From the IMG/VR virus record IMGVR_UViG_2802429251_000001: a stretch of 20,174 bases of DNA; one strand, given 5' to 3'. Below the pieces are notes generated by a model. The model saw only the letters and a program-made list of their open reading frames with translations. It was not told where the DNA came from and searched no databases. The translations under genes and the position numbers were made by a program. Source of the DNA: a virus (lineage: Duplodnaviria; Heunggongvirae; Uroviricota; Caudoviricetes). Below, in pieces: positions 14,992-19,951 of this stretch (positions within the stretch are counted from its first letter, which is position 1; every line of letters begins with the position of its first letter).

Positions 14992-15177
14992 TTATGCCGC
15001 TTTGCGGTAAGCGCTTTCTTGATACTTCAGGGCGCCAGCTGTAACGACTTCCAGTCGATAGGCGTCTTTCTCTGGGATGACTTCCTTCCACTGAGAGACT
15101 GCTGCGTCGCTAATGCCTAACGCTTTAGCTACAGCACGCTGGGTTCCGAAGTGGTCGATAACATCTTTCTTGTACAT
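14992..15177 (-). CDS. cro: Cro repressor (P22 type)
   Basis: 61 aa, MYKKDVIDHFGTQRAVAKALGISDAAVSQWKEVIPEKDAYRLEVVTAGALKYQESAYRKAA, matches recalled P22 Cro. Divergent from the c2 repressor gene. Confidence 0.9.
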   Translation of the reverse strand: MYKKDVIDHFGTQRAVAKALGISDAAVSQWKEVIPEKDAYRLEVVTAGALKYQESAYRKAA

Positions 15178-15189
15178 AGACTCGCTCCG

Positions 15190-15258
15190 AAATTAAAGAA
15201 CACTTAAATTATCCACTAAAGGAATCTTAAGTCAAGTTTATTTAAGATGTCTTAACTA
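15190..15258. promoter_or_regulatory. OR operator cluster with PR (minus strand) and PRM (plus strand)
   Basis: Three sites resembling the P22 operator consensus ATTTAAGA-NN-TCTTAAAT at about 15192-15209, 15215-15232 and 15240-15257. PR on minus strand: -35 TTGACT (plus 15230-15235), 17 bp spacer, -10 ATAATT (plus 15207-15212). c2 ATG at 15258 abuts the operators, suggesting a leaderless mRNA. Confidence 0.7.
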
Positions 15259-15908
15259 TGAAAACTCAATTGATGGGAGAGCGCATTCGCGCTCGGAGAA
15301 AAGAACTCAAGATCAGGCAGGCCGCACTTGGAAAGATGGTCGGCGTGTCTAATGTTGCCATATCTCAGTGGGAACGCTCTGAGACAGAGCCAAATGGAGA
15401 GAATCTTCTCGCCCTGGCTAATGCGTTGAAGTGTTCCCCTGACTATCTGATGAAAGGAGAGGGAAGTCTTTCAAACATTGCCTATCACAGTAGGCATGAT
15501 CCAAGAGGGTCATACCCTCTGATTAGCTGGGTGAGCGCAGGATGCTGGATGGAAGCTGTAGAACCATATCATAAGCGTGCAATAGATAACTGGTACGATA
15601 CAACCGTAGACTGTTCAGAAGATTCGTTTTGGTTGGACGTGAAAGGAGACTCAATGACGGCTCCGGCCGGTCTCAGTATCCCTGAAGGAATGATAATACT
15701 CGTCGATCCTGAAGTAGAGCCGCGTAACGGGAAACTGGTAGTTGCAAAGCTCGAAGGAGAAAACGAGGCAACTTTCAAGAAGTTAGTTATTGATGCAGGC
15801 AGGAAGTTTCTAAAACCACTTAACCCACAATATCCGATGATCGAGATCAACGGAAACTGCAAAATCATCGGCGTAGTTGTCGATGCAAAACTAGCAAACC
15901 TTCCATAA
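15258..15908 (+). CDS. c2: Prophage repressor c2 (P22 type, HTH plus LexA-like S24 autocleavage domain)
   Basis: 216 aa, MKTQLMGERIRARRKELKIRQAALGKMVGVSNVAISQWERSETEPNGENLL...GDSMTAPAG...KLVVAKLEGENEATFKKLVIDAGRKFLKPLNPQYPMIEINGNCKIIGVVVDAKLANLP, matches recalled P22 C2 with a few substitutions. Confidence 0.95.
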   Translation: MKTQLMGERIRARRKELKIRQAALGKMVGVSNVAISQWERSETEPNGENLLALANALKCSPDYLMKGEGSLSNIAYHSRHDPRGSYPLISWVSAGCWMEAVEPYHKRAIDNWYDTTVDCSEDSFWLDVKGDSMTAPAGLSIPEGMIILVDPEVEPRNGKLVVAKLEGENEATFKKLVIDAGRKFLKPLNPQYPMIEINGNCKIIGVVVDAKLANLP

Positions 15909-15932
15909 GGGGGCATTCGCCCCTTTTTTTAT
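15908..15932 (+). terminator. Intrinsic terminator after the repressor gene
   Basis: AAGGGGGC-ATTC-GCCCCTT hairpin followed by a T-run, directly after the c2 stop. Confidence 0.6.
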
Positions 15933-15970
15933 TTCCTTTAAAAATCAAAGCCAAACTTAAGTTACGAAAG

Positions 15971-16028
15971 AAAATTTAAGTTTTCTTCAAAAATACTCTT
16001 GACCATTAATTAAAGAGATCTTAAATTT
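15971..16028 (+). promoter_or_regulatory. OL operators and PL promoter
   Basis: P22-consensus-like operator sites at about 15973-15990 and 16008-16025 (AATTAAAGAGATCTTAAATT). PL: -35 TTGACC (15999-16004), 17 bp spacer, -10 TAAATT (16022-16027). Confidence 0.6.
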
Positions 16029-16073
16029 AAGCCATCAGCAGGACGATGGTAGCCAAACGGAACAGATTGGCAG

Positions 16074-16116
16074 GCTCTTTAACATTGATGGGATTGTCCC
16101 GCCGAAATGCGGGAAC
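16074..16116 (+). promoter_or_regulatory. nutL (boxA plus boxB)
   Basis: GCTCTTTAACA (16074-16084) followed 12 nt later by TCCCGCCGAAATGCGGGAA (16097-16116), the same hairpin sequence as in the nutR transcript. Confidence 0.65.
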
Positions 16117-16433
16117 CAAAGAGTAGTTGGCTTTGGGGTGACGTGACGTGAAGTGCAGCTGCACGACGGCAACCGGAAGATAAGCACCCGGCGCGTCACC
16201 GCCAAAGTCAATTCCATAGGCGTTATGCAGCCGCCACCATATTCAAGAAAGCTGCACAAGAGGTAGGAGGATTTATGTGAATACTTACATTCAATTGAGA
16301 GATTAATTAAATAGAACTGATCGAGCAGAGTCCATAAAGGCTCATAAATGCTCTTCCATCCCCGTCTAATTGGCGGGGAAGGAAACCACTTTGTAATAAA
16401 AAAAATTCCAAAGTTGTTTCATCGGAGGTCAAC

Positions 16434-16733
16434 ATGACAGTAGTCATTACATATCTGGCTGACGATAACGCCAGAAATCGCCGCAGAGCACGCAGACAGG
16501 CTCAACGTGAACAGGCAATGCAAGAGCAGCGACTGGCGCGAAAAATTGCGCTAAAGCTCTCTGGTTGCGTCAGAGCAGATAAAGCAGCATCACTCGGAAG
16601 CCTTCGCTGCAAGAAGGCAGAAGAAGTCGAGCGTAAACAGAATCGTATTTACTACCGCAAGCCACGCAGTGAAATGGGTGTGACTTGTGTTGGTCGCCAG
16701 AAAATGAAATTAGGCAGCAAACCACTTATTTGA
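16434..16733 (+). CDS. N: N-like early antiterminator
   Basis: 99 aa with N-terminal arginine-rich motif (DNARNRRRARRQAQREQ). GGAGG RBS 5 nt upstream. First gene after PL and nutL. Confidence 0.8.
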   Translation: MTVVITYLADDNARNRRRARRQAQREQAMQEQRLARKIALKLSGCVRADKAASLGSLRCKKAEEVERKQNRIYYRKPRSEMGVTCVGRQKMKLGSKPLI

Positions 16734-16741
16734 GGTGAGAT

Positions 16742-16993
16742 ATGGAGTTTCATGAAAGTGCGATTTGTGATTTTCGCGCTAACGCAAATTCAGTAAAACC
16801 ACAGCCAATTGCAGTTCTTTTTAAAACAATGGGTGCGTGGGCTGTTTTATGCTTCGCCTCTGATGACACTGACGCAAGAATGGCAATAGGCCAAGAGATG
16901 GAGATGGACCCGACAAACGATGAATTCATAATTTATGGCGCTCCATCTAATTACTTACTTGATACCTGCAACATTTACAACAAGGCTGCCTGA
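16742..16993 (+). CDS. Hypothetical protein (early-left accessory gene)
   Basis: 83 aa ORF with GAGGTGAG RBS, 8 nt after the N stop. Net acidic. No family recognised. Confidence 0.5.
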   Translation: MEFHESAICDFRANANSVKPQPIAVLFKTMGAWAVLCFASDDTDARMAIGQEMEMDPTNDEFIIYGAPSNYLLDTCNIYNKAA

Positions 16994-17032
16994 TGGCGGC
17001 CTTTATTTTTGGCATAAACAACAGAGGCTAAC

Positions 17033-17323
17033 ATGGAATTTAAAGATACTGAAGGTAAGTGGGAAATAATGATGGATGGCGATGAGATTAAAATCATCCA
17101 GGCAGACTCTCTTGAAAATGGCACAGGCTGGCGTTCGTATATTGCAATCTGTGAGGAAGTTCAATGCATTGAAGATGCCAATCTAATAGCGGCAGCACCT
17201 GACCTTTTAAATGCCCTGAAAGCGATGCTAAACAAGGCATACAAGCAAAACTGGAACGACCATTATCCTGATGAAGTATCGAAAGCACAGTCAGCAATTA
17301 GCAAAGCTCTTGGAGATGAGTAA
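17033..17323 (+). CDS. Hypothetical acidic protein (early-left accessory gene)
   Basis: 96 aa ORF with AGAGG RBS. By my count about 19 Asp/Glu versus about 9 Lys/Arg. AT-rich by eye. Stop overlaps the next start (TAATG). Confidence 0.55.
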   Translation: MEFKDTEGKWEIMMDGDEIKIIQADSLENGTGWRSYIAICEEVQCIEDANLIAAAPDLLNALKAMLNKAYKQNWNDHYPDEVSKAQSAISKALGDE

Positions 17324-17511
17324 TGAAAGTAAAAATAACTGCTTCCAATACCAGTTTTGTTAGTGTTGGTGATATTACAGAAGTAATAACGAATCATGAT
17401 GGAACACAAGTTATGTGGTCTGATTTTTGTAAAAGATATGAGCGAGTTAGTTGGTGTAAAAACACATGGGGAGTCGAATACGAAGAATTACCTGAAATTC
17501 ATGACGAATAA
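17323..17511 (+). CDS. Hypothetical protein (early-left accessory gene)
   Basis: 62 aa ORF coupled to the preceding gene, GGAGATGAG RBS, AT-rich by eye. Followed by a stable hairpin and then an intrinsic terminator. Confidence 0.55.
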   Translation: MKVKITASNTSFVSVGDITEVITNHDGTQVMWSDFCKRYERVSWCKNTWGVEYEELPEIHDE

Positions 17512-17606
17512 GCACTGTGTATTCATTCCAACGAGTGAATACACGGAGCAATGTCGCTCGTAACTAAACAGGAGCCGACTTGTTCTGATTATTGGAAATC
17601 TTCTTT

Positions 17607-17631
17607 GCCCTCCCGTGTGAGGGCTTTTTTA
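17607..17631 (+). terminator. Intrinsic terminator in the early-left operon (tL-like)
   Basis: GCCCTC-CCGTGT-GAGGGC hairpin followed by TTTTTT. Confidence 0.6.
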
Positions 17632-17696
17632 TATGCATACCAATAACGCTTCACTTGAGGCGTTTTCGTTATGCAATCAAACAGAAGGAGCATCCT

Positions 17697-17867
17697 ATGC
17701 AACAGTTCGCTATTGCAGGGGCGGCATCGGTTCGCCCTTTCAACCCGATTTTATCGGTGCAGCATTCACGAAAAAACATTTTAACCGGAGCAGATTTTAA
17801 ACAACCAAGAATGAAAAGTTTGCTCGAAAAGCTTTGGGATATTTTGAAACAACAAGGCCGTCCATGA
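17697..17867 (+). CDS. cIII-like protein (putative FtsH inhibitor)
   Basis: 56 aa from ATG 17697 (AAGGAG RBS 6 nt upstream): MQQFAIAGAASV...SLLEKLWDILKQQGRP, resembling recalled lambda cIII (MQYAIAGWPVAG...SLLERITRKLRDGWKRLIDILNQPG). The track ORF 17592..17867 is an extension across the terminator. Confidence 0.5.
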   Translation: MQQFAIAGAASVRPFNPILSVQHSRKNILTGADFKQPRMKSLLEKLWDILKQQGRP

Positions 17868-17971
17868 GTTTTACAGATAACTGGTCAGACGAAGAATTCA
17901 TTCGTCAGATGAACAAAATGCTCAATCAGCACAAAGAACAGGAGAAAGATGATGATTCTGACTCTGAATGA
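17864..17971 (+). CDS. Small hypothetical ORF (35 aa)
   Basis: Found by hand: MSFTDNWSDEEFIRQMNKMLNQHKEQEKDDDSDSE. ATG overlaps the cIII-like stop (ATGA). Occupies the slot of lambda kil but shows no similarity I can recognise. Confidence 0.3.
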   Translation: MSFTDNWSDEEFIRQMNKMLNQHKEQEKDDDSDSE

Positions 17972-18260
17972 TAAGTGTGAAATATCGCAAATCATCGCAA
18001 GTTTTACTGATGAAGATTACGAACGAATCAACAGTGAAGTTGATCGCCTCTGCAAACGTTGCGACCCAATAAGCGAAATGCTTCGCTCATATAAACCAGA
18101 TGAACACACTAAGGACGCTATCGACTGGCTGGAAGATGATGACTGTAACTATCAGGAAAAAGCCGCTGAATGGTTCTGGGATGCAATAACCGAAAGAGTT
18201 AAGGCTGAATATGCCTTCGCAATATTCAAACGCAGACACATTTTTGGAGAAGCAGCATGA
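17949..18260 (+). CDS. Hypothetical protein upstream of recT
   Basis: 103 aa ORF with GGAG RBS; stop overlaps the recT start (ATGA). No family recognised; too small to be a RecE/lambda-Exo-type exonuclease. Confidence 0.55.
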   Translation: MMILTLNDKCEISQIIASFTDEDYERINSEVDRLCKRCDPISEMLRSYKPDEHTKDAIDWLEDDDCNYQEKAAEWFWDAITERVKAEYAFAIFKRRHIFGEAA

Positions 18261-19159
18261 GCAATATCGTTGAATTCGTTAAACAGCAAGAGCAGTTATT
18301 CTGCGGAGCATTGACTGAACAGACGGTGACATGGGCTAAGGAAAGCCAGTTTGCAATTCAGTATTTCCAGAAAAACGATTACCTGGCTAAAACGGCACTG
18401 GCAAATCCAACCAGCGCACAGAACGCCATCATCAATGTTGCGGCGATCGGCATCACCTTAAACCCGGCCAGCAAACTTGCTTATCTGGTTCCGCGCGACG
18501 GCATGGTTTGCCTTGATATCAGCTATATGGGATTACTTCACCTTGCACAGTCGACAGGATCAATTAAGTGGGGGCAATGCAAACTGGTGTACTCAAACGA
18601 CACCTATGAATCAAACGGCCTTGATTCAGCACCAACCCACAAATACAACGCATTTGGTGAGCGAGGCTCTATTGTTGGTGGTTATTGTACGGTTAAAACA
18701 GCAGATGGTGACTACCTGACTGAAGAAATGAGTCTGGCAGAAATTAAAGCTGTGGAAGCAACGAGCAAGGCAAAGAATGGACCGTGGAAGACATTCTGGG
18801 AAGAGATGGCGCGTAAAACCATAGTTAAACGCGCCAGCAAATACTGGCCTAAAGCCCAGCGACTGGATAATGCCATTCACCTGCTTAACGAAGATGAAGG
18901 TATGCATCAGGAACCAGTTATGCCGCACAAATCAGAGGAAGATATCCGCGAAGATGAACGGAAACGCCAGCAGGAAATAATGGATAAAGCACAACTTCTT
19001 TGCGATGAAATGGCTCAGGCAGAAAACATGGATGATTTGAAGCGATATTTTGCAGAAGCATATCGCCTGACATCTGGAATGAAATTGCAGCAGAACGTAC
19101 AAGCCATTTACATAGAATGCAAAGCGAAACTGGAGGTTGCCAGTGAGCAAACTGTATGA
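18257..19159 (+). CDS. recT: RecT-family single-strand annealing recombinase
   Basis: 300 aa; motif KNGPWKTFWEEMARKTIVKRASKYWP parallels Rac RecT (NNGPWVTHWEEMAKKTAIRRLFKYLP). GGAGAAG RBS. Confidence 0.9.
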   Translation: MSNIVEFVKQQEQLFCGALTEQTVTWAKESQFAIQYFQKNDYLAKTALANPTSAQNAIINVAAIGITLNPASKLAYLVPRDGMVCLDISYMGLLHLAQSTGSIKWGQCKLVYSNDTYESNGLDSAPTHKYNAFGERGSIVGGYCTVKTADGDYLTEEMSLAEIKAVEATSKAKNGPWKTFWEEMARKTIVKRASKYWPKAQRLDNAIHLLNEDEGMHQEPVMPHKSEEDIREDERKRQQEIMDKAQLLCDEMAQAENMDDLKRYFAEAYRLTSGMKLQQNVQAIYIECKAKLEVASEQTV

Positions 19160-19625
19160 AATAGCCAATGAATACGCAAAGCTGATGGATTCAGATTTAG
19201 AGCCAGAGATGATTGCTGACACAATAGAAGGCATGGAAGGAGAATTCACCGATAAAATAGAGCAACTTCTTGCTATTATTAAAAATGAATCTGGTTATGC
19301 TGAACGCCTCAAGGAAGAGGCAAAGTCACTAAATGAGCGAGCCGCAGTAATTCAAAATAAGATTGACAGCATTATGGCGTATATAGCGTCATCGCTTGAA
19401 ATGGTTGGCAAGAAAAAGATTCGAGCAGGTATTCACCAGGTAACAATCCGCAAACCGTCAGAAACTGTAGAAATCATCGACTCAAGCGCCCTTCCTCCTG
19501 AATACGTTGAGTTTGAAACGACAATTAAAGCCGACAAACTGGCAATCAAACACCAACTAAAAGCAGGAATAAATATCCCCGGCGCTCAACTCAAAGTTGG
19601 GAAGCCTTCACTTCTTATCAAATAA
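19143..19625 (+). CDS. Gp157-like protein (Siphovirus Gp157 family, putative)
   Basis: Track ORF starts at a TTG; I prefer GTG 19143, 6 nt after GGAGG (VSKLYEIANEYAKLM...). Coiled-coil-like N-terminus and position right after recT fit the Gp157 family as I recall it. Confidence 0.5.
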   Translation: MSKLYEIANEYAKLMDSDLEPEMIADTIEGMEGEFTDKIEQLLAIIKNESGYAERLKEEAKSLNERAAVIQNKIDSIMAYIASSLEMVGKKKIRAGIHQVTIRKPSETVEIIDSSALPPEYVEFETTIKADKLAIKHQLKAGINIPGAQLKVGKPSLLIK

Positions 19626-19636
19626 CGGTATCGACT

Positions 19637-19951
19637 ATGAAAAAGACTCCATGGGAGAAATGGGAAGTCGATTTCTTGCGCGAAGTGGCGGCGACAATGC
19701 CAGTTGAAGTTATCGCTGAAAAACTGGAAAGGACTGAAAAAGCAGTAATGGCGAAAGCAACAAGGATTGGCGCTGACATTGTTAGCCGACTTCGTGGAAG
19801 ACGATGGACAAGAGCCGAAGTATCACTTTTCGGTAAGTTCTCCGCAGAAGAAATAGCAATTGCAACCTGCCGCTCAATTTATTCAGTAAGGGCTATGCGA
19901 TACAAGCTAAAAAAACTCGATGAAGAGAGAGCAGGAATACGAATAAATTAA
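19637..19951 (+). CDS. Hypothetical protein
   Basis: 104 aa ORF in the same operon direction; weak RBS. No family recognised. Confidence 0.45.

Follow-up and report, generated by a model that had tools for sequence, protein, structure and literature searches.

We analyzed a segment of IMGVR_UViG_2802429251_000001, a Caudoviricetes record of IMG/VR whose whole stretch of 20,174 nucleotides (hereafter the window) represents an ordinary lambdoid phage genome. Within it, three small open reading frames (ORF1, ORF2 and ORF3) lie between the antiterminator gene N and cIII. Anti-restriction and exclusion genes are classically found in the early-left region of lambdoid phages, and a first-pass annotation of this DNA had read the three ORFs as a single accessory cassette of candidate anti-defence or exclusion genes. 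Based on sequence comparison with related phages and prophages, the segment appears to be made up of accessory modules of the N-to-cIII 'ral region' that assort independently, and not to be one cassette.

Genes and signals between N and cIII

The early-left (pL) operon is encoded on the + strand of the window. The gene cIII forms the conserved downstream bound of a variable interval that begins after N, and the ORF1-ORF3 segment fills this interval, which contains the following features:

16434-16733, + strand: N antiterminator gene (phrog_271, 4.8e-37; PF25694)
16742-16993, + strand: ORF1, 83 amino acids, with the Shine-Dalgarno (SD)-like sequence GAGGTGA; phrog_2471
16982-17012, + strand: terminator-like hairpin (16982-17003; 9-bp stem, 6 GC) and T run, with the ORF1 stop codon in the loop
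17033-17323, + strand: ORF2, 96 amino acids, with the SD-like sequence AGAGG; PF27050 (Phage_P22_Y8K6), phrog_1273; a variable N-terminal beta part and conserved C-terminal helices
17323-17511, + strand: ORF3, 62 amino acids, with the SD-like sequence GGAG; phrog_10407
17512-17635, + strand: conserved hairpin/terminator block, 97% identical to lambda 34045-33920
17517-17544, + strand: 12-bp hairpin inside this block
17607-17624, + strand: predicted intrinsic terminator with T run, inside the same block
17645-17664, + strand: second terminator-like hairpin, upstream of cIII
17697-17867, + strand: cIII, 56 amino acids (phrog_550, 1e-22), at the same place in related loci

The gene calls of the first-pass annotation, namely three small SD-led ORFs of which the last two are coupled by a TAATG overlap, were confirmed in coordinates, SD sequences and junction. 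The gap between N and ORF1 is only 8 nt, and the TGA stop codon of N falls within the SD of ORF1. Comparison with homologs gave ratios of nonsynonymous to synonymous substitution rates (dN/dS) of 0.16-0.49 across the three ORFs, which indicates purifying selection, and synonymous sites were saturated relative to distant homologs while the proteins remained 55-70% identical; thus, all three are real protein-coding genes. The impression that they are more AT-rich than N and recT also held when computed: the GC content of the segment was 0.400 against 0.490 for the window, which places it at the 0.7th percentile among 770-bp windows, and the flanking N and recT genes had values of 0.490 and 0.460, respectively. 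ORF3 (0.333; 0.206 at third codon positions) is the 189-bp stretch of lowest GC content in the window.

With regard to transcription signals, the previously noted hairpin at 17517-17544 and the terminator at 17607 were both found again, and RNA folding of 17505-17680 gave a z-score of -5.4. Two further hairpins had been missed, as had cIII itself; one of them lies upstream of cIII (17645-17664) and the other at the end of ORF1 (16982-17003). The latter, with a folding z-score of -3.5, is homologous to the hairpin that ends lambda ral, and the annotation of phage mEp234 lists its equivalent as a rho-independent terminator. Both 16982-17003 and 17607-17624 combine a GC-rich hairpin and a T run with conservation at sites annotated as terminators in HK106 and mEp234, and are predicted to be intrinsic terminators. 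An Rfam search of window positions 15800-18300 returned nothing relevant.

Two slots with interchangeable genes

Comparison of the interval with other lambdoid loci revealed two slots, hereafter slot 1 (ORF1) and slot 2 (ORF2 and ORF3), and the following joints and insertions:

16710-16746, + strand: conserved 5' linker of slot 1, comprising the upstream gene's last codons, the SD and ATGGA; common to mEp213 orf184 and lambda orf28
16997-17025, + strand: conserved 29-bp linker with insertions on either side, after it in this window and before it in phage Gally
17026-17510, + strand: ORF2-ORF3 insertion module of 485 bp; 9 bp in lambda and 8 bp in VT2-Sakai at the same point
17183-17209, + strand: LIAAAPDLL codons of ORF2, with a recurrent intragenic mosaic joint at ~17206

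ORF1 lies where lambda carries orf28-ral. The 5' linker, which includes the SD plus the first two codons, is 94.6% identical to the start region of mEp213 orf184 and 87% identical to lambda 34381-34353, the start of orf28. On the 3' side, window 16977-17025, consisting of the last five codons of ORF1, the hairpin and the 29-bp linker, is 92% identical to lambda 34103-34055, which holds the last ral codons, the same hairpin and the same linker. Homology of these flanks was seen with lambda, mEp213, VT2-Sakai, mEp234 and Gally. The encoded proteins themselves are not homologous by the comparisons made (hhalign probability of 0.1% for ORF1 against Ral and 1.5% for ORF1 against orf184). Furthermore, ORF1 had neither a match to the Pfam family of Ral (PF11058) nor a BLASTP match to lambda Ral, and it lacks the conserved cysteines of Ral; what the two share is the flanking DNA and the last four residues only. 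The similar C-terminal ends (NKAA in Ral and ORF1, DKAA in orf184) exist because the mosaic joint lies within the gene's 3' end. Slot 1 thus holds alternative cargos, which are ORF1 in the window, orf28-ral in lambda and orf184 in mEp213, and the ~30-nt linker on their 5' side and the hairpin and linker on their 3' side are common to all three. Like ORF1, orf184 encodes a small acidic protein, although of unrelated sequence.

ORF1 belongs to a narrow enterobacterial family without a recognized domain (phrog_2471) and is the equivalent of H0090 of VT2-Sakai. Homologs down to 70% identity were always located directly after an N gene, whatever the N allele, and the gene was found behind several unrelated N alleles. 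In lambda, by contrast, sieB separates N from orf28-ral, whereas ORF1 abuts N directly.

Slot 2 starts where the 29-bp linker ends. In lambda the conserved terminator block follows only 9 bp past the linker, and the ORF2-ORF3 module is inserted at this point in the window. VT2-Sakai, HK106, mEp234 and Shiga toxin (Stx) phages have the block within a few bases of ORF1 and no ORF2-ORF3, and Gally has an unrelated gene of 149 amino acids inserted on the other side of the linker.

The assignment of ORF2 to PF27050 was made via its homologs and P22 orf78 and not by direct scoring of ORF2: homologs that are 94-96% identical to it carry a precomputed PF27050 match, and P22 orf78 (78 amino acids, 8.62 kDa) scored 34.5 bits against a hidden Markov model (HMM) of the ORF2 family (E 1e-6 for a nominal million sequences). 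Close homologs of ORF2, including that of a locus with 97% identical DNA, bear the NCBI Prokaryotic Genome Annotation Pipeline (PGAP) name 'XkdD/Y8K6 family phage-associated protein', which is not an NCBIfam HMM in the release searched. ORF2 carries the N-terminal G-T-x-G-x-W motif, the LIAAAPDLLxAL helix and the AISKALGEE tail of PF27050. The columns of LIAAAPDLLxAL and of the C-terminal AIxKALGxE, both present in ORF2 and P22 orf78, were invariant or nearly so in an alignment of 54 sequences. Identity to mEp043 and many E. coli prophages ends at ~17206, inside the LIAAAPDLL codons, and at least three unrelated types of N-terminal half are spliced onto the same PF27050 C-terminal half. The two halves of ORF2 were also found separately in other phages, including strictly virulent ones. 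In the predicted structure of ORF2 (a beta-hairpin followed by a helical hairpin), the N-terminal beta part was of low confidence and the C-terminal helices were confident.

The family of ORF3 is tiny, with ~10 genuine cluster representatives among 1.84 billion proteins; long proteins that also matched its profile proved spurious, being translated tandem repeats. The ORF3 domain also forms the C-terminal part of a protein of 144 amino acids in virulent Krischvirus phages, and 9NA-like and Aeromonas phages carry it as a separate gene. We considered whether ORF2 and ORF3 could be a split version of the Krischvirus protein and rejected this, as the N-terminal part of that protein is unrelated to ORF2. 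A metal-binding or disulfide motif in ORF3 was also rejected, since its two cysteines are not conserved in the family.

In all 11 loci compared, the early-left operon contained a PF27050 gene, which followed N and preceded cIII wherever these two had been called or annotated, and a small gene downstream either overlapped the PF27050 gene or started within 20 nt of it. This partner was ORF3 in seven loci (93-100% identical, with the same TAATG junction), where the preceding PF27050 proteins carried three different N-terminal halves, and an unrelated gene of 52-85 amino acids in the remaining four. In locus L026, a genuine Ral occupies slot 1 and a PF27050-ORF3 pair follows it. Judging from these arrangements, slot 2 consists of a PF27050 gene and a swappable small downstream gene, here ORF3. 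Like the LIAAAPDLL DNA, the linkers that border the slots (the conserved SD/ATGGA one and the one of 29 bp) behave as recombination joints. We consider this slot anatomy to be very probably correct.

The same order is found in P22 (24(N)-ral-orf78-orf87-17-c3). As in the window, an antiterminator gene is followed by a slot-1 gene, a PF27050 gene (orf78, Y8K6) that overlaps a small partner gene (orf87), and then c3, the counterpart of cIII. However, slot 1 of P22 is occupied by Ral and not by ORF1, and its partner gene encodes a DUF551 protein in place of ORF3, a remote homology search between ORF3 and DUF551 being negative. Only the C-terminal helical half of ORF2 is shared with orf78, and the window has neither sieB between N and slot 1 nor gene 17. 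The layout of the window is thus a variant of a long-known but uncharacterized P22 layout. The three genes do not represent new families; these have been catalogued (phrog_2471, phrog_1273/PF27050 and phrog_10407), and their layout is that of P22 ral-orf78-orf87. The hotspot is ordinary but well-defined: the gene combinations are new, whereas the families are already catalogued and the variable region is known.

The distribution of the modules was examined in complete E. coli genomes. The interior of ORF1 was present in 403 of 5426 genomes, always with at least 95% identity, as well as in 54 phage records, including Stx2 phages, HK106, mEp234 and Gally. The ORF2-ORF3 pair (at least 80% coverage) was found in 60 of the same genomes, and most of 16400-18000 (from N through the three ORFs into the next gene) in only five, none of which was identical to the window. 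These numbers largely refute the idea that the three genes form a single co-adapted cassette for anti-defence or exclusion with jointly acting products. Such a cassette would fit the translational coupling of ORF2 and ORF3, the position in the ral hotspot, and the occurrence of the trio in the same order in at least the E. coli 88-3493 and VCSW5 prophages. However, ORF1 stands directly before the terminator block in Stx phages, HK106 and mEp234; ORF2 is found with other partners and ORF3 behind other genes; ORF2 is internally recombined; and a terminator-like hairpin splits ORF1 from ORF2. A single co-adapted unit is, in our view, highly improbable. The earlier interpretation is partly supported, as it had the hotspot right and the unit wrong.

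Predicted expression and candidate functions

A search for internal promoters yielded five promoter-like matches, compared with 5.1 expected from shuffled sequences, and none was convincing. Because promoter-like sites were no commoner than in shuffled sequence, pL would drive all three genes, in lytic growth or upon induction but not in the lysogen. Considering the 8-nt gap, the N stop codon inside the SD and the position 5' of the first terminator, ORF1 should be made together with N, to which it is probably translationally coupled; as a gene co-transcribed with N, it would be immediate-early and precede antitermination. ORF2 and ORF3 should need N-mediated read-through because they are located beyond the first terminator, and would be delayed-early.

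This predicted timing bears on whether the genes could be prophage-expressed morons for defence or superinfection exclusion that protect the lysogen, like sieB, rex and BstA. Neighboring intervals in related prophages do hold such genes, including sieB in lambda and P22, a BstA_C gene in locus L027 and, in one E. coli match, a gene annotated as 'superinfection exclusion protein', and low GC content is typical of morons. On the other hand, the three genes are encoded on the strand of pL, where promoter-like sites did not exceed chance, so that the repressor should silence them in the lysogen. None of their products matched a PADLOC model or had BLASTP similarity to SieB beyond chance. In addition, strictly virulent phages, for which there is no lysogen to protect, carry the ORF3 domain and the ORF2 halves as well. 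A role as lysogen-protecting morons seems distinctly unlikely.

Another possibility is that the products modulate the phage program or host physiology, as helpers of N, the lysis-lysogeny decision, recombination or cell division in the manner of cIII, Kil and Arf. The operon is rich in small regulators of this type, ORF1 strictly adjoins N and is probably coupled to it, and the predicted helical hairpin conserved in ORF2 resembles many protein-binding adaptors. However, ORF1 occurs behind several unrelated N alleles, and viable phages such as lambda have unrelated proteins in the slot (Ral, orf184) or no ORF2-ORF3, which argues against a core regulatory role. We therefore regard a modulator function as doubtful.

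The first-pass annotation had remarked that small acidic proteins in such a position are often DNA mimics or enzyme inhibitors. It had counted at least two acidic products, and all three proved to be so, with isoelectric points (pI) of 4.24, 4.37 and 4.82 and net charges of -7, -10 and -5 for ORF1, ORF2 and ORF3, respectively. DNA-mimic inhibitors like Ocr and ArdA would be a special case of counter-defence. However, acidic residues make up only 14-20% of the three proteins, net charges of -5 to -10 are moderate, and neighboring proteins that are not mimics, orf103 and RecT, are acidic too and have similar pI values, so that this property is not distinctive. No Pfam or PDB sequence match to the Ocr, ArdA or Gam families was found, and the ORF2 model matches no mimic fold. 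Mimicry of DNA is very improbable for these proteins.

Useful comparison is provided by Silas et al. (2023; bioRxiv 10.1101/2023.04.06.535777), who defined phage accessory regions and screened 200 synthesized accessory genes in wild E. coli strains. Like the N-to-cIII interval, their accessory regions hold variable small (~50-100 amino acids) non-essential genes between conserved genes, some of them counter-defence alleles, and the interval has the marks of a lambdoid accessory region in its variable small genes between N and cIII, its conserved joint linkers and the counter-defence alleles found elsewhere. Their library includes orf57, orf60, orf87 (a lambda-type Ral) and orf184 from lambdoid loci that match this region. 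The product of orf60 is AFM76313.1 of mEp234, identical to ORF1 except for a single residue, and orf57 is an alternative partner of ORF2. ORF2 and ORF3 themselves lie outside that library, motif searches of the supplements having found nothing. Phenotypes were reported for Ral and for orf184, which the authors placed in one accessory region with ral and which triggers the gop-beta-cII abortive system (Silas et al., 2023).

Taken as a whole, the best explanation, which we consider somewhat probable, is a modular ral-region composite expressed from pL with counter-defence as the leading candidate function. Counter-defence leads because slot 1 is shared with Ral and orf184, ORF2 has a hypervariable N-terminal half on a conserved scaffold, and the ORF3 domain is found in virulent phages. 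For the three genes themselves it is plausible by position only, and we suggest tentatively that at least one of them may be a counter-defence factor. As the products are small, soluble and acidic and have no catalytic signatures, they would most likely bind a host or rival-element protein stoichiometrically, early in infection, and the hypervariable half of ORF2 on its conserved helical scaffold would suit a changing target-recognition surface. A more specific scheme is also conceivable, in which ORF1 would be a non-homologous functional replacement of Ral, immediate-early and made with N, while the PF27050 protein and its partner would form a two-part counter-defence module, the N-terminal half setting target specificity and the coupled small protein (here ORF3, which virulent T4-like phages use too) being the effector; we consider it unlikely in this detailed form.

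Several results weigh against a counter-defence function. Searches of the three proteins against Pfam, PHROGs, NCBIfam and PADLOC gave only PHROGs of unknown function, with no match to Pfam anti-defence families and none in PADLOC at E<=1, and single-sequence and profile searches of PDB sequences found nothing below E 0.09. The lack of protein-level similarity to ral, sieB, ea10, kil and gam, noticed earlier, was confirmed. The ORF1 AlphaFold model was unreliable and unusable (predicted local distance difference test, 55.6). A fold search with the ORF2 model retrieved only uncharacterized proteins of ~100 amino acids from diverse phages (template modeling score 0.6-0.7), and nothing similar was found in PDB. 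The acidity of the products, as noted above, is moderate and common to neighboring genes. PF27050 has no known function, and no literature on the function of XkdD or orf78 was found. A phenotype of orf60 or orf57 is not mentioned in the text of Silas et al. (2023), nor are these genes in the follow-up (PMC12373910), a negative that relies on the paper text and not on per-gene fitness tables and so means no reported phenotype rather than a demonstrated null. In this respect, the homolog of ORF1 differs from orf184, its counterpart in slot 1. Literature searches by Pfam identifier, motifs, PHROG and accession identifiers and early-left anti-defence retrieved no functional data beyond the library entry, and direct functional evidence was found for none of the three genes. 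Of the proposed anti-defence or exclusion hotspot after N, the location is upheld by the slot that ORF1 shares with lambda ral, whereas no evidence of anti-defence or exclusion activity was found.

Surrounding genes and biological meaning

The minus strand of the window encodes the portal, terminase, endolysin, Q, a primase/helicase, an O-like gene and cII. The immunity region is made up of cro, c2 and N, of which the first two lie upstream of the interval analyzed here:

14992-15177, - strand: cro
15258-15908: P22-type c2 repressor

A strong terminator-like hairpin (15907-15926) directly follows c2, and beyond it extends an AT-rich non-coding stretch of ~500 bp (window 15907-16430; GC content of 0.36 at 15800-16100), which should hold pL, its operators and nutL. 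This repressor-to-N interval contains neither rex nor sieB nor any other gene, unlike that of lambda, P22, VT2-Sakai and several related prophages. In related E. coli prophages, a BstA_C-domain defence protein is encoded between the repressor and N (348-1253 in L027), and IS100 insertions adjoin the N-to-cIII interval in two others (L009/L010), which shows that the neighborhood is plastic.

Downstream, no kil gene follows cIII in the window (17697-17971), whereas in related loci kil overlaps the end of cIII. An ORF of 35 amino acids (17864-17971) overlaps the cIII stop codon by ATGA and matches only the N-terminal 20-32 positions of phrog_17766 and phrog_2123, and from 17864 onward the DNA of the window equals the sequence downstream of kil in mEp043, mEp213 and VCSW5. 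Judging from this, kil appears to have been cleanly deleted or replaced, leaving a short ORF behind. The next gene, orf103 (17949-18260), encodes an acidic protein of 103 amino acids and unknown function (phrog_3486) and overlaps the start of recT (18257-19159) by ATGA. The same gene of 102/103 codons lies upstream of RecT in several related prophages (L006, L022, L025 and L027). Since the window shows no exonuclease gene next to RecT, its product may be a conserved partner of RecT.

On the 3' side of RecT follow a Gp157/Mu-Gam-like protein (19137-19625) and a basic protein of 104 amino acids (19637-19951). The latter was named 'Anti-RecBCD protein 1 (Abc1-like)' by the annotators of Gally and falls among D5-like transcriptional regulators in PHROGs; Abc1 was reported to trigger an abortive system encoded by P4 (Silas et al., 2023). 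At the other end of the window, a seeming orphan of 194 amino acids (213-797, + strand), which had no PHROG, Pfam or PADLOC match, was rejected as a shadow ORF. Opposite to it, a minus-strand frame (3-1898) is free of stops over more than 630 codons; this frame, presumably the head gene downstream of the portal, continues past the left edge of the window.

The present result is a description of an ordinary mosaic hotspot and not the discovery of a function. ORF1 is found in about 7% of complete E. coli genomes and in many prophages of pathogenic E. coli, some Stx2 phages among them. The useful yield of the analysis is an exact map of the slots, with ORF1, Ral and orf184 as alternative cargos of the first and a PF27050 gene with a swappable partner in the second, together with the link to orf78-orf87 of P22. 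This map offers a simple, testable guide for mining and comparing accessory genes. If it is true that ORF1 or ORF2-ORF3 inhibits a defence system, this would be the first function for families that are present in hundreds of genomes and in the model phage P22.

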